This document shows, one piece after another, positions 18,904-32,792 of a stretch of DNA of 36,308 nucleotides; within the stretch, counting starts at the first letter, position 1; every line of letters starts with the position of its first letter. The stretch is from a virus. The notes beneath the pieces are model-generated. The model was given only the letters and a program-made list of their open reading frames with translations. It was not told the DNA's origin and ran no database searches. A program made the position numbers and the translations under genes. The stretch lies in IMG/VR virus record IMGVR_UViG_3300044452_000161, one strand, 5' to 3'.

Positions 18904-21900
18904 ATGAACAACTCTGAATTGCTGAACTACATCTTCGACGGGGTTGAAGAAGAGTTCATTCTGATATCCGAGGGTAGAGATGACCGCAGGTCTGTAGCGG
19001 AAGCTCATACCCCGATTGCTACCGATGTAATTCTAATCGACCTGTTTTTGCCTGACAGTAAGTCTGTTGTGGGTGTGCCAGTCGGTGATGCTTCGTTGGG
19101 AACAATAAGACTGTCGAAAGATGGAAGAGATGACGTTTACGTCGCTTTGTTCGATGTGCCAGTCGAAGAAGCTGATCTCCCTGAATCCGTAGACGATCTG
19201 ACCATTCCAATTCAAAATGGTTGGTCTGCGCATGTAGGTACTGACAAATTCTACTTGCTTGAAGAAGTTTTCCCACTCACCGGAAAGGAGGATGAAGATG
19301 CGCCGTCTTCTGAATCAGAAGTTATGGAAGCTGAAGACCTCGGTGATGAATTGGGAGAGAGTACTTCTTCTGAAGATAATGGAGACGCAAGCGACGTTGG
19401 CGGCGACGAATTCAGCGATCCAAGCCCAGAAGCAGAAGACCCCAACTCACCCAGCAACTCTGGTGACCTTGGAACAGTATCAGATAAAACTGACCAAGAA
19501 ATTGGATCAGCGGGAGAAGAGCCTCAGACGCCTACTAGCGATGACCAAAGTGATGGGGCTGTAACCGAGCTAGAACGGCAAAACGACGCGGTGCTCCACG
19601 GCGTAGAAACCGATGCCTGGCACACGTTGATGGATCAGCCCGCGACGCTACTGATGGGAAATCTGTGGGGTGCCCGGGATCGGCGGAACACTCAAGACGG
19701 CGACTGGAAAGAGGCCACACTTACCTGGGGAGCCTGGATTGACGGTGGCCCGCGTGAGCGGGGGATGTTGCCTTGGGGGTTTTCGCGGCACCCGATAGGC
19801 AAGCACAAAGAGGGACAATGCCTGGTGATGGGGTCGTCCATTGGCGGCGCACGCAAGGCTAAGGCCATGGACGAGATGTTCGCTATTGGCCTTGATGTCG
19901 ACAGCGGCGCTCAACTGGACGGCGTCTTGGACAAGCTGGAAGACCTTGGCGTCGCATGTCTGGTCTACACGTCTTACAATCACGGTAAATCCGGCCTGGC
20001 GCTAAAGCGTGACGACGTACTGCGAAAACTTCAGATCGACAACGATCCGTCGGACCAAGAAGTCCGGAATTATCTCACGCTACACGGCAAAGACCGGTTC
20101 GAAGCCGATTTTATCTCTCGGTGCACAATCAAAGATCAGAAGTACCAGACCACGGACGGTCTGAAGATACTTGTTGATACGCCACCGCTGGACAAATTTC
20201 GGCTGATTTTCCCGCTGGCTGAGCCGGTCAAGCTAATGGAATTAGGCAACACCGATGCCGACAGCTTAGCGATCTGGGAGGACGCCGTCACTGGTCTGGC
20301 TCAGAACACGATTGGCATATACTTCGACGCGGCGTGCACTGATCCGTCCCGTTTGTTTTACACGGCACGTCATGCACAGGATGCAGAAGATTGGTACTGC
20401 GCGATAGTTCGGGGCGATCCGCTGGTTTTTGAAGACATCGAGCCGATGCGTAAATCGGCCTATACCGCAAAGCGGGAAACGAACGTCTTTATAGAAGCCT
20501 CAGGCGATGACGGTGAGGATGATCTGCCGCCACTGTGTCTGACCCCGTCCGGCAAATCTTTGAACGATTGGCACAAGAGTGCCAAAGACAGGTTTTTGAT
20601 CGCGGACCTTTTGGAGGACCACTGCCCGGACAAAATCCGCAAAGCTGGTGGGGAGGCGCAAGGACATGTGCATACTGAATGCCCCTTTGAACATGAGCAT
20701 TCAGGTGAAGGCGGTACCGGGACCATGGCCATCAATGCTCTGGATTCTTCGTCGGAGTATTGGACCTGGTTCTGTCACCACGACGCTTGCCAAGGGCGGC
20801 ACAAGCTGCAGTTTCTGGAAGAGGCGTTAAGAGCCGGGTGGTTCGAGGAAGAACTCCTCTTTGACGAGGATGGAGGGTATCTGCTTGAGCCGCTAGAGGT
20901 TGAAGAAGAGGAAAAACCGGCGCTAGAGGCGGACCTAAATCTATCTCCTTCACAGCAAGCCGAAAACATAAACGACGATAGTTCTCAAAAGGACATCGAA
21001 GACCTGATTGAGAGCCTGGTTAACCAAGGCGTAGATCGCGTTGAACGTGCTGCTGCAATCGAAACCATGTCGAAAAACACGCGACTTGGAAAACGCGAGC
21101 TTTCATCGATGTGGAAGCAAATAGAAGCGGTTCACAAGGCCAACGCTCAGGAAGCTAAAAAGGTAAAAGCCACGGTTGCTGTCGTGAACCAATGGGATTT
21201 TTCCCAGATTCACGAGTATGGCAGCAAACGCATCCATGATACGAACCGGAAAACGCCGTCGGTGTTCCACTACATGGAAAATTTGACGATCATTCGGGAG
21301 AACTCCGAGGGCAAGCCAATCATGCGGTTCTTGGATCGTGGAGGCTTTGCACATCACTTGAACACCGTCGCAAAATTCGCCCGCGTCAGCGGGGAAGACG
21401 AGAGAAAGATTGGTGTATCGGCACCGGTAGATGTCGTGAACTATCTGTTCGAAGAAGATTATGGGAAATACCCTGATCTACAAGGCTTGGTCACAACTCC
21501 AATTTTCACCAAGTCAGGAACGATATTGTCGGAACCTGGGTACGATTGGGGTAGTAAACTCTTCTACAACCCAGACAACTCCCTGACATTGCGAAAAGTA
21601 GACGCAATACCCTCTCCCGAAGATGTGTTTGAAGCCAAAAGACTTTTGATCGAGGAGGTTTTGGCGGATTTTCCTCTAGGTGCTCTAACCAGAACTGAAA
21701 TCATCGAGCAAGGGCTTCATGGTGAGGGCGTCCCTGCTGTCACCAACATGATTGCAATGATCTTGTTGCCATTTATGCGTGAAATGATTTCCGGTCCTAC
21801 GCCTGGACACCTTCTGGTGAAACCGACACCGGGTACCGGCGCAAGTCTTCTGACAGACCTGTTTTCTATCATATCTGACGGTGTCGAGACACCTGCTTTG

Positions 21901-22758
21901 GCTATGCCGCACAGCAATGAAGAGATGGGTAAGACCCTGGCAGCGGTTCTGTCCAATGGCCAAAACATTGTGTTCTTCGACAATATCAATCACTCCGTTG
22001 ACTCTGCCGAGTTAGCGATGGCAATGACGCAGCCTACTTACCAGGCTCGTCTCTTGGGGCGGACACAAACAGTGGACGCGAAAGTGCGCTGTGTCTGGGT
22101 GTTTACTGGCAACAACGTGACATTGTCGCCTGAACTGGTTCGAAGACTTATTATGATCGATCTAGATGCGCGACTGGAGAACCCAGAGAAGCGCACAGGC
22201 TTCAAATACGAGAACATTAAGGATTGGGTTCGCGAGCATCGTTCCGAGCTTGTGTGGGCCTGTTTGACGTTAATTCAAAATTGGGTGGCACAAGGATCAC
22301 CTCATCAGAAGGATGTTGTTATGGCTTCATATGAAAGCTGGTCTGGAGCAGTGGGTGGTGTTCTTAAGTCGGTAGGTTTGGGCGGATTCCTAGGAAACCG
22401 GGAAGAACTGAAAGCCGCTGCTACTGACACGACCGGAGACGATGTATCGATCTTGATGGAAGCTTGGTGGGACAACTTTGGTCAATCCGAAGTTCCAGTA
22501 AAAGGTACCGACAAAGCCCCTGGATTGATAGAACTCGCGAACACAGAAGACCTATCTCTTCCGATGAAGAAAGAAGTCAATATGGACGGCGAACGAACTT
22601 ACTCATCTCGGTCTTTTGGTACTTTTCTAGGAAAGCACAAAGGCAAAATCAAAACCATGGAAGATGGTAGTATCGTCCGGATCGTGAAAGCGGACACGCG
22701 CACCAAGCAAGGCTTCAAGTGGTTCTTGGAGAAGCTGGACGATGAGGATGCGGCGTGA
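18904..22758 (+). CDS. Large replication protein: acidic N-terminus, AEP-like primase, Zn finger, C-terminal P-loop ATPase/helicase-like domain
   Basis: IGLDVDSG (DxD), YTSYNHG, KFRLIFPL, TDPSRLFY; CPFEHEH..CHHDAC; PGTGAS, VFFDNI, FTGNN, ELVRR. Confidence 0.75.
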   Translation: MNNSELLNYIFDGVEEEFILISEGRDDRRSVAEAHTPIATDVILIDLFLPDSKSVVGVPVGDASLGTIRLSKDGRDDVYVALFDVPVEEADLPESVDDLTIPIQNGWSAHVGTDKFYLLEEVFPLTGKEDEDAPSSESEVMEAEDLGDELGESTSSEDNGDASDVGGDEFSDPSPEAEDPNSPSNSGDLGTVSDKTDQEIGSAGEEPQTPTSDDQSDGAVTELERQNDAVLHGVETDAWHTLMDQPATLLMGNLWGARDRRNTQDGDWKEATLTWGAWIDGGPRERGMLPWGFSRHPIGKHKEGQCLVMGSSIGGARKAKAMDEMFAIGLDVDSGAQLDGVLDKLEDLGVACLVYTSYNHGKSGLALKRDDVLRKLQIDNDPSDQEVRNYLTLHGKDRFEADFISRCTIKDQKYQTTDGLKILVDTPPLDKFRLIFPLAEPVKLMELGNTDADSLAIWEDAVTGLAQNTIGIYFDAACTDPSRLFYTARHAQDAEDWYCAIVRGDPLVFEDIEPMRKSAYTAKRETNVFIEASGDDGEDDLPPLCLTPSGKSLNDWHKSAKDRFLIADLLEDHCPDKIRKAGGEAQGHVHTECPFEHEHSGEGGTGTMAINALDSSSEYWTWFCHHDACQGRHKLQFLEEALRAGWFEEELLFDEDGGYLLEPLEVEEEEKPALEADLNLSPSQQAENINDDSSQKDIEDLIESLVNQGVDRVERAAAIETMSKNTRLGKRELSSMWKQIEAVHKANAQEAKKVKATVAVVNQWDFSQIHEYGSKRIHDTNRKTPSVFHYMENLTIIRENSEGKPIMRFLDRGGFAHHLNTVAKFARVSGEDERKIGVSAPVDVVNYLFEEDYGKYPDLQGLVTTPIFTKSGTILSEPGYDWGSKLFYNPDNSLTLRKVDAIPSPEDVFEAKRLLIEEVLADFPLGALTRTEIIEQGLHGEGVPAVTNMIAMILLPFMREMISGPTPGHLLVKPTPGTGASLLTDLFSIISDGVETPALAMPHSNEEMGKTLAAVLSNGQNIVFFDNINHSVDSAELAMAMTQPTYQARLLGRTQTVDAKVRCVWVFTGNNVTLSPELVRRLIMIDLDARLENPEKRTGFKYENIKDWVREHRSELVWACLTLIQNWVAQGSPHQKDVVMASYESWSGAVGGVLKSVGLGGFLGNREELKAAATDTTGDDVSILMEAWWDNFGQSEVPVKGTDKAPGLIELANTEDLSLPMKKEVNMDGERTYSSRSFGTFLGKHKGKIKTMEDGSIVRIVKADTRTKQGFKWFLEKLDDEDAA

Positions 22759-23261: not shown

Positions 23262-24218
23262 GCGTTTGAAATCACGACATTCAGACGAGACGTTTCAACG
23301 GACGGACGCAGAGCGACCGTTTCCTTCGACGCTACTCTGTCAGATGATGCAGCGCGTCGTGATTTTACCATGAACGCCCTGTACGTTAACCGTCGGGGAC
23401 AATTGCTTGATCCTACCGGACACGGAATCAAGGACGCGAAGGAACGGCGTATCAGGTTTGTCGGCGATGGCACGGAACGCTGCCGGGAAGACTACTTGCG
23501 GATACTTCGGGCGTTTCGATTTACGGCAAAATATGGAACCGGACTCCTCACTGGGGATGTTGCACACGCAATTGCGCCAACTATCCCTGGCCTGAAGTGT
23601 GTATCAGAAGAACGCATCCTGGCAGAACTCAAGAAGATTGTGGTTTCACCCGGTGCCCACGGAGCCTTTCACCAGATGAAAGAGATGGGTGTATTTGGCT
23701 TTATCGGATTATCAGTCAACCGTATCGACTGGTTGAACACACTGCGCCGCGCAGAGGAGCAGTACGGTTTCAAAACAGATTGGCGGATAGCCCTTACCCC
23801 AATGCTTCAACGGATCGAAGAGTTGGAAAACCTTCCTTTGTCCAAATCAGACCGTAAGGCCATAAACTCTATATGGAACTACACAACATCAGATTTGTGT
23901 GACCTCTCTGGCCGTTCCTTAGGGTTCAAATTCAAAGACCATTTTACTGCTGTGGCTGCGTACCTAATTGGAGTGGCTCTAGGCTACCGGTCTTTCAATC
24001 ACAATGAGATCAACGACATCGAGATCGGAGTGAATGCCAAACTACCGGTCACGTCTGAGGATTTTCGAAACCGTGGCATCGAAAATGGCCCTATGATGGG
24101 GGCATGCATCATGATGGCGAAAAAAGAGTACTACAACAGCGATCTTCGCCTAACCAGTGCTCATATTATTGACAATGTAATGTCACAATTACTTGCCGAA
24201 TCGCCTTCATGTGGATAA
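23262..24218 (+). pseudogene. cca: C-terminal portion of a CCA-adding tRNA nucleotidyltransferase
   Basis: Frame opens after TAA 23256 with AFEITTFRRDVSTDGRRA..DDAARRDFTMNAL..IRFVG..EDYLRILRAFRF..VSEERI..EL; no start codon before the motif region. Confidence 0.85.
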
Positions 24219-27284: not shown

Positions 27285-27410
27285 TGCTCAGTCGGGTCAT
27301 TTTATGGATCGCGGGGGGCTTAGTTGCCCTCCACGGTTTCGTCATTTGGGCTGATATGGTGATGGAGACTTGGTTCCTCGATGAACTCTTGGGCTTCCTT
27401 ATCACCAGCG
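27281..27410 (+). pseudogene. 5' part of a small two-TM membrane protein cut at the inversion breakpoint
   Basis: Hydrophobic MMLSRVILWIAGGLVALHGFVIW..GFLITS; currently reads on to a stop at 27475 through antisense cca sequence. Confidence 0.65.
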
Positions 27411-27661
27411 CCTTTCTGAAGGACAGCCGTTATCGTTCCGTGCTCAAGGCCTGTAAAGACGACGTCTCCGTGTAATTGGGCCACCGCGTACGCCTCTTCT
27501 GGAGTTGCATCAGTTGCGATGTCCACATCTTCGCAAGGGACGCCCAAAAGAAAGTCACGCACGCAACCGCCCACGAGATAGGCTTTATGGCCTGCTAATT
27601 CGAAGGATTTGAGAAGTTCGTCGAGTCCTTCGTATTGGGTGATCAAATCTCGCGCTACCAT
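27408..27661 (-). pseudogene. cca: N-terminal catalytic portion of the CCA-adding enzyme
   Basis: YLVGGCVRDFLLG..EDVDIATDATPEE..TGLEHGTITAVLQKG (DxD catalytic motif); similarity stops at the breakpoint. Confidence 0.88.
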
Positions 27662-28038: not shown

Positions 28039-28066
28039 ATGAATGTCCTCCGATATATCGTTTCGG

Positions 28067-28083
28067 TGTCAGTCTTGATGACA
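28067..28083. promoter_or_regulatory. TGTCA-N7-TGACA palindrome
   Basis: TGTCA GTCTTGA TGACA, about 28 bp upstream of the minus-strand start at 28038. Confidence 0.6.
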
Positions 28084-28776: not shown

Positions 28777-29142
28777 TCGGGTGTAGACCCATATTTCACC
28801 GCTGGCTGCAACCACCTGCACTTTCGATATTCACTGTCGTAAGTTGCCGTAGACCCACATTTCACCGTTGGCTGCAACTGAAGTTGCGCAGGCCAAGAGA
28901 TTGATCGTGTTGCCGTAGACCCAAATTTCACCGCGGGCTGCAACGTTCAAATCACTGCTGACAAGACTGCTGATGTTGCCGTAGACCCACATTTCACCAA
29001 GGACTGCAACTATTGGCTCCGTTACGAATGAAGGATTCAAGTTGCCGTAGACCCACATTTCACCAAGGACTACAACTGTCACTGCTGCTGCAAGTACAAC
29101 CAACTCGTTGCCGTAGACCCACATTTCACCGCTGGCTGCAAC
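28777..29142 (-). CRISPR. CRISPR array: 6 repeats of 36 bp and 5 unique 30-bp spacers
   Basis: Plus-strand consensus GTTGCCGTAGACCCACATTTCACCGCTGGCTGCAAC at 28777 (degenerate first 6 nt), 28843, 28909, 28975, 29041, 29107; strand inferred from the adjacent nuclease. Confidence 0.93.
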
Positions 29143-29149
29143 TGATGTG

Positions 29150-29445
29150 CTAACAACTAATTGATCCTTCGATAGAATCTCCCGGTTCGATGGTAAAAGA
29201 GTGTCCTCCCGGCCCGTGTGAAGATGTCTTCACAGGGCTAACGATGGGATTCAACAGGTCGTTCTTTCCAAGTGCATTACACTCAGAGAGATCGGGGGCA
29301 ACATCGAACGATACGATGTTTCCTCCCATGCCTGCCTTCCATCCAGACAAACTGTCTGGAGCGTTGGTCGTCTGCTGGTTGACCAACATGGGACCAGCAA
29401 CAGTCCCCATATATCCCGAAGACATCAAGCGATGGTTCGGGAATG
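29150..29445 (-). ncRNA. Candidate omegaRNA/tracrRNA-like scaffold overlapping the 3' end of the nuclease gene
   Basis: Six inverted repeats in ~230 bp, loop-loop complementarity and a partial anti-repeat; boundaries unknown. Confidence 0.55.
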
Positions 29446-30790
29446 CTTTGTTGAGGATATTGAACGCTGCCATTTCATCAGCGTGTTCCTCATGTCCGCA
29501 CGTGGAGCAGTGAAACTTTTCCTGCCGAACGCGGCTTACTTTGGATACGGACCCACACGCTTTACACGTCTGAGACGTATAAGCGGGATCGACGGATAAA
29601 ACATGATGTCCAACCCCCGCAGCTTTGTATTCAAGCTGTGACCTAAACATGTACTTTGGAACATCCAAGAACGTACGATTGAAGTTCGCCTGAGCTTGGT
29701 TGGATATAACCTTCTTTCCTGACTTTCTGCGTGACTTTCCGCTCTCAGTCATTTTCTTGACCGACAAGTCCTCAACAGCGATGTGCGTGTAATTTCGAAC
29801 CAGATCAGTCGTTATCTTGTGAAGTGCCAATCTCTTTCTGGCTGCCTCTTTACGCAGCTTTGCAGCAAGTTTCTTCCGAACGGCATTTCGTTTCTTGCTA
29901 CCCTTTTGTTTTCTTGAAAGCGCCTTCCGAAGGTGCGTCGTTTCGTGTTTGTGTTCTGGTGAGGTTGGAATGTCAAACGCTTCCAATATGCTTCCAGATA
30001 GACCAGTGGAGTCAGCAATAGCAATTGGATTTGTTGTCCCAAGATCAACCCCGACAAATCGCGGTTCAATACTTGTGTTTTCCACAACTTCTCGACTGGT
30101 GGCGACGCATATCGACCAAATATCATCTTCGCGAACAATTGTTGCTGTGTGGAGTTTCCGGCGACGCAGTCTTGCATGTCCGTTGTACTTAATCCACCCA
30201 ATTTTTGCCACTTTGACGCAGTCTTTTCCAAATACGGTACAGGCTTTTCCGCTCAAATAAATCCGATACGTAAGAGACTGAACTCCTCGCGTGCTTCGAA
30301 ACTTTGGTTTATCACAGGGTTTTCTTTTCCGAAGATTGTCGAAGTATTTGTCCCAAGCCATGTCTAGACTATCAAGAGCGTATTTGAACTGGTCTTTGCC
30401 AGCGTATTCATATAGCCACGATAGTTCAGGATCGTCCCTCAGGCCAGACAAGCTGACTAACTCCGATTTACGCAATCGAGCTACAGCCCTTTCCTTGGAG
30501 CCGTCTTTGGTCTTGCTAAACTTGTTGTTTGCATCATCCCAAGGCTTCCACTGTGGGAGGACTCTTTCAGTCTTGCAGTCCCGAAAACCAACTTCCTTTA
30601 CCTGTCTATTCGAGTTGAAAGAAGAGTTTCTGCCGTGTCTGTCAGTTCCCTGAACTTCTGAGTACATACGACGCTGTTCATTGGCCGCGTTGTACACCAT
30701 ACGGACGGCTGCAAATGCCTGTTCCAACTGCGCCTTTTGGGCTGTCGTTGGGTATAGACGGAACTTCAATGTTCTCATCTTGCGCGGCAT
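29150..30790 (-). CDS. IS605 TnpB-like RuvC nuclease; candidate compact type V CRISPR effector
   Basis: TLKFRLYPT..Q...L...F..VRMVYN; RuvC-I VGVDLG; RuvC-II IAVEDL; VDPAYTSQTCKACG..CSTCG Zn ribbon; RuvC-III HADEMAAFNI; AAAGGA RBS favours the ATG at 30790 (alternative 30823). Confidence 0.88.
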   Translation of the reverse strand: MPRKMRTLKFRLYPTTAQKAQLEQAFAAVRMVYNAANEQRRMYSEVQGTDRHGRNSSFNSNRQVKEVGFRDCKTERVLPQWKPWDDANNKFSKTKDGSKERAVARLRKSELVSLSGLRDDPELSWLYEYAGKDQFKYALDSLDMAWDKYFDNLRKRKPCDKPKFRSTRGVQSLTYRIYLSGKACTVFGKDCVKVAKIGWIKYNGHARLRRRKLHTATIVREDDIWSICVATSREVVENTSIEPRFVGVDLGTTNPIAIADSTGLSGSILEAFDIPTSPEHKHETTHLRKALSRKQKGSKKRNAVRKKLAAKLRKEAARKRLALHKITTDLVRNYTHIAVEDLSVKKMTESGKSRRKSGKKVISNQAQANFNRTFLDVPKYMFRSQLEYKAAGVGHHVLSVDPAYTSQTCKACGSVSKVSRVRQEKFHCSTCGHEEHADEMAAFNILNKAFPNHRLMSSGYMGTVAGPMLVNQQTTNAPDSLSGWKAGMGGNIVSFDVAPDLSECNALGKNDLLNPIVSPVKTSSHGPGGHSFTIEPGDSIEGSISC

Positions 30791-30827
30791 TCGGTGACAT
30801 CCTTTCGTTCGTTTCGCTGTCATCTAA

Positions 30828-32477: not shown

Positions 32478-32792
32478 TCATCTCTCATCTCTGTCTTTTA
32501 GTGCCACCTCAGCACCTTCAACAAAACTATTCCAAAGCGCAGTCAGGATGCGTGCATGTGTTGGACTGTTAGGTGATGTTCCGGTGTGGCAAAGAACCGT
32601 TTCGGTGTCGGCTAGATACAAGCCGTGCATCCGTTGCAGTCCTTCCTGACCAAAGGTGTTCGCGGTAGTCTCGACAGATGTCTTTATGTGATCGGAATGT
32701 TCTTGTGCGTTTAGTTCTTTTGTAGCGCCCCACTCAACGCGTCCAACGGCCAACGCGGCTCTCTGCATCTCTAGAAGTACTTCGTCACTCAT
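32478..32792 (-). CDS. Hypothetical protein
   Basis: 104 aa, GGGAG RBS. Confidence 0.55.
   Translation of the reverse strand: MSDEVLLEMQRAALAVGRVEWGATKELNAQEHSDHIKTSVETTANTFGQEGLQRMHGLYLADTETVLCHTGTSPNSPTHARILTALWNSFVEGAEVALKDRDER

Follow-up and report, generated by a model that had tools for sequence, protein, structure and literature searches.

The window, by which we mean the whole stretch of 36,308 nt analysed here, carries the phage-type genes rIIA/rIIB as well as genes for RNA ligase, polynucleotide kinase and NAD salvage. On its minus strand, an ORF of 557 amino acids (29150..30823; 546 amino acids from an MPRK start in the database gene call) encodes a TnpB-fold nuclease. A CRISPR array of six 36-nt repeats and five 30-nt spacers with a period of 66 begins 7 bases after the stop of this ORF (28777..29142, minus strand). 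The array is read on the minus strand because its terminal repeat copy (28777-28812) is degenerate at the 3′ end, which fixes the direction. Among repeat copies 1-5, 5 of the 12 columns at positions −36 to −25 vary, compared with 1 of 24 at −24 to −1, and repeat 1 ends in GGCAAC (29107..29112, minus strand), 6 nt that are identical in all five copies. The two ends of the repeat (29107-29142) are also complementary to each other (GUUGC...GCAAC), and before processing the 5′ end could compete with the scaffold loop described below.

The gene next to the array finds its best matches (48-50%) in phages of Ruegeria, Roseobacter, Phaeobacter and Rhodobacter; in DSS3P8, no nuclease or array is annotated within 4 kb of the orthologue of this gene. 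Neither Cas1, Cas2, Cas4 nor TnpA was detected among the 31 ORFs of the window searched with Pfam and the 43 searched with PHROGs. The spacers gave chance-level matches only in phages and plasmids (E 1-4), no target of spacer 1 was found in viral contigs, and the best match of the spacers to the window itself covered 19-20 of 30 positions.

A 12-nt motif occurs three times on the minus strand of the window, upstream of genes (28059-28070, 30810-30821 and 32598-32609), compared with a mean of 0.45 in shuffled sequences, of which 1 in 100 reached three. It is probably a phage promoter element. Since the copy at 30810-30821 sits immediately 5′ of the MPRK start, it suggests that the nuclease is under phage promoter control. 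A scan for promoters and terminators stayed at chance level and yielded no terminator. From RNA run X15, a single contig of 233 nt maps to 30185-30417 and none over the tail of the gene, a kind of record in which contigs cannot show expression either way. Elsewhere in the window, a plus-strand gene (18904-22758) encodes a protein of 1284 amino acids without a Pfam match, which matches a PHROG without assigned function over its full length and a DNA polymerase/primase family in part. Two separate nucleotidyltransferase/poly(A) polymerase-like genes lie on opposite strands (23370-24218, plus; 27320-27661, minus).

The nuclease and its clade

The nuclease contains HTH, OrfB and zinc-finger domains (Pfam), has intact RuvC residues D260/E351/D449 and matches the NCBIfam model guided_TnpB with 197 bits (cut-off 100). 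The Pfam and NCBIfam matches stop near residue 460. From there the ORF runs on, extending 108 codons beyond D449 of RuvC-III and 96 codons beyond an NKAF motif. This last segment (29150..29440, minus strand), low in K/R and rich in G/S/P/N, is the one that holds the putative RNA scaffold.

A protein search yielded 11 further members of a clade, with 36-49% identity; P0003-P0010 are nearest to the window protein. The tails after RuvC-III comprise 60-108 residues in the clade (10 of 11 measurable, the window protein counted in), compared with a median of 37 in 103 other matches. With two fragments set aside, tail identity within the clade amounts to 14-34% versus 39-54% for the core, which in the short members is TnpB-sized (~400 amino acids). 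The clade received a support of 0.999 with FastTree (68 rows) and of 100 in a quick IQ-TREE analysis (37 rows). P0087 and P0112, which are stand-ins for Cas12n picked by profile score and not characterised Cas12n proteins, fell on a separate branch in both trees. On the Cas12u4 profile, for which PADLOC supplies no cut-off, these two scored 533-621 bits, compared with 189 for the window nuclease, 189-286 for the clade and 208-303 for other TnpB matches. Holding the clade together with P0087/P0112 in an AU test lowered the lnL by 33.7 (p=0.061), by which a joint clade is not rejected. Judged by its sequence, the nuclease falls within a TnpB clade that is well supported and stands apart from Cas12n-like proteins in two trees. 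Because of this separate position and the profile scores in the TnpB range, we do not class the protein as Cas12n, although its predicted mode is Cas12n-like. No description of the clade was found among the listed results of our literature searches. The contig names of its members were not found in the supplement files searched of PMC10691335 and PMC12669027; the sequence tables may lie in other files, and the clade may be catalogued all the same.

The DNA of relatives was taken from a metagenome scan of 80 loci (L037, L038, L039 and L115) and from a motif scan of species genomes (the seven loci L117-L123, from Azospirillum, Silicimonas and Paracoccaceae records and one Proteobacteria MAG). 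With the window included, ten loci have a readable tail; they fall into six lineages, and nine of them have an array right after the ORF. We omitted from the counts L037, which ends with its contig and lacks the part from RuvC-III to stem 2, and L118, whose contig ends before the tail; L122, with an internal stop and no array, entered the stem counts only. Three further candidates (L124, L125 and L127) were rejected as chance motif matches. Four clade members (L119, L120, L122 and L123) are decayed. In the Silicimonas/Paracoccaceae members (L118-L123) the RuvC-I aspartate is replaced by E (GLEWS/GVEWS) and the repeats are irregular and decayed; stem 1, the loop:repeat match and the module S3, all described below, are retained wherever the tail is readable. 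These members are possibly a nuclease-dead sub-branch.

Among viral contigs, searching with the single protein, with the exact repeat and, twice, with degenerate clade motifs returned no relatives, and no close relatives were found in cultured phages and plasmids. One viral contig of 36.9 kb does carry two protein-free copies of the scaffold core (L126:2485-2630 and L128:2481-2630), which our covariance model matches with E 4e-4 and 1e-11. Each lies downstream of TTGACT and continues into a long fused hairpin. No TnpB was found on this contig, the record of which is estimated to be 16% complete; the copies are possibly orphan omegaRNAs acting in trans.

RNA structure within the coding tail

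The tail folds with a minimum free energy of about −113 kcal/mol, which none of 100 dinucleotide shuffles reached (z −3.74). It also beats protein-preserving shuffles, with z-scores of −4.0 to −4.5: for the 309-nt tail, synonymous resampling gave −4.47 and synonymous permutation −4.32 (0/300 each), and codon-order shuffling −4.02 (1/300). Eight windows of equal size upstream in the gene gave z −0.64 to +0.36. The RNA structure is real and restricted to the tail of the gene. In Rfam, nothing matched the tail at E up to 5. The initial annotation had singled out six pairs of inverted-repeat arms here, and all of them are exact reverse complements within their ranges; as elements of a conserved scaffold they fared differently.

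Stem 1 (29390..29407, minus strand) consists of 6 bp with a 6-nt loop and covaries across the clade. Its loop GUUGCU (29396..29401, minus strand) is complementary in 6/6 positions to the last 6 nt of the repeat. Covariation across homologous loci, proposed as a check in the initial annotation, is found in this pairing: in 9/9 array-bearing loci the loop matches the end of its own repeat in 6/6 positions, through five loop sequences and with compensatory changes. The combinations of the six lineages are GUUGCU:GGCAAC (window), GCUCAA:UUGAGC, GUUUCG:CGGAAC, GUUGUA:UACAAC, GUUUCG:CGAAAC and GCCAUG:CAUGGC. The hairpin lies 48-78 nt past the RuvC-III codon in each locus and its loop is closed directly by 6-8 bp in eight of the nine, L119 having a mismatch beside the loop. 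Non-cognate combinations of loop and repeat reach 2-5 matches, except for the two lineages with a common loop. Just 2 of 720 reassignments among the six lineages match equally well, and shuffled tails yield a comparable closed loop in 0-22 of 5000 cases. The loops were chosen by complementarity, which makes the permutation count partly circular; the independent support therefore comes from MAFFT, which places them in the same ungapped columns. Across the six aligned rows, pairing is complete (100%) in the pseudoknot, where 4/6 pairs have changed on both sides, and reaches 100% in stem 1 and 96% in stem 2. The whole structure model reaches 94% paired positions compared with 24-39% when slid (0/500 shuffles), for a structure derived from the same sequences and with only six independent lineages.

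The initial annotation had assigned this loop another partner, suggesting a pseudoknot or kissing interaction between ACCAGCA (29393-29399) and TGCTGGT (29373-29379) in the hairpin that follows. The complementarity is exact over 7 nt (P 0.0105 when the 40 nt following stem 1 are shuffled), and as isolated duplexes the loop-loop pairing is the more stable one (−10.1 versus −6.1 kcal/mol for loop:repeat). The window lineage has rebuilt this segment, with loss of an RKTP-coding motif. The interaction might accordingly be this phage's own pseudoknot, or a switch that masks the loop until processing. We regard both as improbable, since none of the nine relatives exceeds 3-5 nt at this site, and since three of the seven bases are part of the 6-bp stem (3′ strand), in which three pairs would have to open (nested probability 0.00-0.02). 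Moreover, the interaction would block a pairing conserved in all loci. Across the loci compared, the pairing that is conserved joins the first loop to the CRISPR repeat's 3′ end, not to the second loop.

The most conserved module, S3 (29207..29249, minus strand), was missing from the stems noted initially. It comprises a 4-bp outer stem, a 7/1 internal loop (AUCGUUA / C) and a 4-bp inner stem, which is capped by a hairpin at 29217-29234. The arms TGTGAAGA/TCTTCACA (29217/29227), originally drawn as a stem, are indeed complementary; drawn in that way they would leave a 2-nt loop, and the segment folds as 7 bp with a 4-nt loop instead. S3 was recognized by a strict pattern in nine of ten loci (shuffles 1-6/500), L039 being off by one base, and its paired sequences differ in each lineage. 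A covariance model built from nine relatives without the window ranked 29207-29251 (minus strand) first on both strands of the 36 kb, albeit weakly (E 0.083), with a match that spans S3 only.

Stem 2 is uncertain in the window. Its inferred strands lie at 29378-29382 (5′) and 29251..29255 (3′, both minus strand), and the 5′ strand, long-range paired in relatives, overlaps a window-specific hairpin region (29363..29387, minus strand), the same that contains the loop-loop partner 29373-29379. Nearest-neighbour folding of the window gives probabilities of 0.00-0.04 to the outer stem of S3, to stem 2 and to the anti-repeat described below; imposing S3 takes 4.7 kcal/mol, and adding stem 2 another 8.7. 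Since this folding disfavours both, stem 2 and the outer S3 stem in the window rest on homology. A possible second tertiary helix that would join stem 2 to the S3 loop (CG:CG) is not supported (79% paired, two invariant pairs, no two-sided change).

Between stem 1 and S3, the window lineage carries an in-frame structured insertion of ~96 nt (29258..29362, minus strand, approximate limits) where relatives have a short hairpin, and the distance from loop to S3 is 152 nt compared with 53-71 nt in relatives. The hairpins 29342-29360 and 29294-29327, which had been counted among the stems of the scaffold, lie inside this insertion together with others; relatives lack them. The first hairpin of the initial annotation (29414..29442, minus strand) is stable in the window (P 0.99) and lies 5′ of the conserved core. 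A second 6-nt site complementary to the repeat end (GUUGCC, 29297-29302, minus strand) is buried in the 29294-29327 hairpin. Of the 16 differences on the tail contig in run X8, ten were listed; at least seven strain variants fall into 29150-29445, four of them residue-changing and three not. None of those listed affects stem 1, the loop, the S3 stems or the anti-repeat core, and their preference for unpaired sites does not reach significance (P 0.086).

Directly after S3 follows a weak anti-repeat site (29190..29207, minus strand). Its core at 29192-29198, UUUUACC, pairs with the repeat segment GGUGAAA, which in copy 1 occupies 29124-29130. The core ends at repeat position −24, where the conservation of the repeat ends. 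The segment 29207-29190 is the best 18-nt partner within the tail for repeat positions −24 to −7 and forms once S3 is imposed. At −11.8 kcal/mol, an energy that 832 of 1000 shuffles reach, the pairing is no better than chance in the window; in six of eight relatives the anti-repeat after S3 is significant (−19.6 to −30.2 kcal/mol, 0-21/1000 shuffles), and it is not significant in L120 and L123, the arrays of which are decayed. The anti-repeat first suggested at 29213-29192, and already called weak, thus occupies the homologous place without standing out energetically. Its GCCG:CGGC part is unlikely, as these bases are occupied by the conserved stem and the pseudoknot. Another candidate, GUUAGCCC, was abandoned once S3 and the anti-repeat downstream of it had been recognized.

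The weakness of this pairing compared with that in the six relatives could mean that the scaffold works in cis only. Tail, repeat 1 and spacer 1 would then form an omegaRNA-like single guide, the newest spacer would mainly be used, and distal crRNAs would be poorly loaded, which the weak anti-repeat of this lineage would reflect. The close spacing is compatible with such an arrangement: repeat 1 starts 46-80 nt after S3 in 9/9 loci, and the array of the window 64 nt after it. So is the pairing of the loop strand with the end of repeat 1 in cis, at P 0.91 in a nested approximation. However, repeats 2-5 keep the scaffold-pairing part (−24 to −1) while their 5′ part drifts, which suggests that all crRNAs are used. 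We therefore consider restriction to cis a possibility to be kept in mind, though the less likely one.

Reading frame of the tail

The distances from RuvC-III to the loop (78, 60, 51 and 48 nt) are all multiples of three, and those from the loop to S3 (152, 71, 59, 56 and 53 nt) all equal 2 modulo 3. If independence is assumed, seven length differences would all keep the frame by chance in ~1 of 2000 cases. The frame shifts inside S3 (28, 29 or 43 nt), and the same bases are read as GPG in the window, RAG in L121 and EGR in L037 and P0003-P0008. The ORF stop lies 51-72 nt after S3 in 9/9 array loci, shortly beyond the anti-repeat. In the window, both other frames of the tail contain three stops each (P(open) 0.016; 0.11-0.51 for each of the relatives). 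Since length changes keep the frame, the placement of the stop is kept and S3 is read in differing frames, the data point, with modest strength, to selection for translation and not for a particular peptide.

One conceivable account is that the clade moved from TnpB to CRISPR independently and that its tail must be translated in frame, with no conservation of the peptide. The ribosome would tether the newly folded nuclease to the mRNA that encodes it, for loading of its tracr-repeat-spacer RNA in cis. Alternatively, the ribosome might shield the transcript from termination. We put the tethering account forward as speculative and rather unlikely; if true, it would explain why TnpB-family genes code through their own guide scaffold. 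The in-frame, poorly conserved tail makes the question testable why such genes keep translating through their RNA.

The open frame also bears on whether the module is still in use. The scaffold may be a decaying relic or an mRNA-stabilising leader of a module that no longer makes guided RNPs, as one might suspect from the weak anti-repeat, the doubtful stem 2, the spacers without matches in phages and plasmids (for spacer 1 also in viral contigs) and the presence of decayed members in the clade. Yet the window retains an intact catalytic triad, stem 1, loop:repeat match and S3; the repeats are conserved, the ORF is open while the other frames are closed, and the 96-nt insertion, too, is structured and keeps the frame. 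We give this view little credence.

A predicted tracrRNA and related systems

We consider it likely, with a probability of roughly 0.8, that the tail of the nuclease gene holds an RNA acting as tracrRNA, which likely arose from a TnpB omegaRNA split at its right-end hairpin. The idea that the ORF tail holds a structured, tracr-like scaffold descended from an omegaRNA had been put forward initially from the stems, and it is supported by folding, covariation, S3 and the place of the anti-repeat. Gene, scaffold and array would be transcribed as one RNA from a promoter near 30810. The scaffold would then be excised, or it would stay attached to repeat 1 and spacer 1 and serve as a natural single guide. 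It would pair with each crRNA through the anti-repeat (repeat positions −24 to −18 and beyond) and the loop:repeat pseudoknot (−6 to −1), and the nuclease, presumably as a monomer, would cut spacer-matching DNA, most likely of rival phages and plasmids. As in TnpB and Cas12n, the peptide encoded by the tail is predicted to be disordered and not to be needed for cleavage.

An unsplit counterpart is found next to the clade. One tree places L040, an array-less TnpB locus, beside the clade (support 83). Its unsplit omegaRNA contains the same stem-2 motif and continues into a terminal hairpin; L050, matched by the model with E 7e-4, also ends in a terminal hairpin. In the split form, the left arm of this hairpin would have become the anti-repeat, and the right arm together with the pseudoknot strand would have become the repeat. 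The clade thereby illustrates the step from an omegaRNA to separate tracrRNA and crRNA beside unsplit relatives. A pseudoknot sequence that varies while its pairing is kept fits repeats that derive from the right end of their own element, or that co-evolve with the scaffold.

In IS200/IS605 elements, the RNA likewise lies over the 3′ end of the gene. For ISDra2 TnpB, it has been described that the omegaRNA extends over the gene's 3′ end, that the overlapping peptide is disordered and dispensable and that the loop of stem 1 pairs with the last bases of the scaffold (PMC10097598). The nuclease passes the guided_TnpB cut-off, in keeping with this family. Here, in contrast, the 3′ arm and the pseudoknot strand are repeated as an array with five spacers, the array replaces the right end, and TnpA is missing from the scanned ORFs.

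With Cas12n (V-N; V-U4, C2c9; RdCas12n and AcCas12n), the locus shares the predicted tracrRNA within the 3′ tail of the ORF and a predicted pseudoknot in which the stem-1 loop pairs with the repeat's 3′ end. Cas12n is described with a tracrRNA overlapping the ORF under a disordered C-terminal tail and a multi-stem scaffold whose stem-1 loop pairs with the repeat 3′ end (PMC12216341, PMC11641405). The same type of loop pairing is reported for RdCas12n, ISDra2 TnpB and Cas12p (PMC12216341, PMC10097598, 10.1101/2025.01.20.633832). The differences lie in the Cas12u4 profile, where the window nuclease scores 189 bits against 533-621 for the strong matches, in the separate branch of the clade in two trees and in the TnpB-sized core of its short members. 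Cas12n is also characterised by an A-rich (AAN) PAM and by dsDNA cleavage; for the window, no protospacers emerged from the spacer searches in phages and plasmids and, for spacer 1, in viral contigs. The Cas12n-like layout likely arose separately in this lineage.

The split of an omegaRNA into tracrRNA and crRNA, with a TnpB-sized nuclease and a downstream array, has been described for TranC (PMC13565253, 10.64898/2026.03.27.714800). According to papers citing Jin et al. 2025, one clade-9 member of these transposon-CRISPR intermediates comes from a phage. The clade resembles TranC in combining a TnpB-like protein with an array, present in nine of the ten loci with readable tail, and in having L040 as unsplit counterpart; LaTranC itself is a distant match to the nuclease (E 2e-8). 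It differs in that the whole scaffold including the anti-repeat lies inside the ORF, and 10.64898/2026.03.27.714800 states that no TranC-clade system there had a Cas12n-like unstructured tail.

The principle is thus already known, the ORF-embedded tracrRNA from Cas12n and the splitting of the RNA from TranC. What the comparison adds is a covariation-backed guide design at the nucleotide level for a clade of compact nucleases (core ~400-450 amino acids) from phages and alphaproteobacteria, which makes the system directly testable. Cas12p and Cas12r, which we compared by description only, are likewise phage-borne TnpB-derived effectors with arrays. Cas12r has its array directly after the ORF and is reported to work with crRNA only. 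Cas12p (Cas12 hacker) is described with a tracr:repeat pseudoknot, a larger REC domain and a motif fixed throughout the family (10.1101/2025.01.20.633832), whereas the pseudoknot motif varies among lineages here. Outside the clade, we also noticed six TnpB-like loci with repeat arrays (L087, L092, L075, L079, L097 and L102), and in L087 and L092 the array is preceded by a long coding tail, too.
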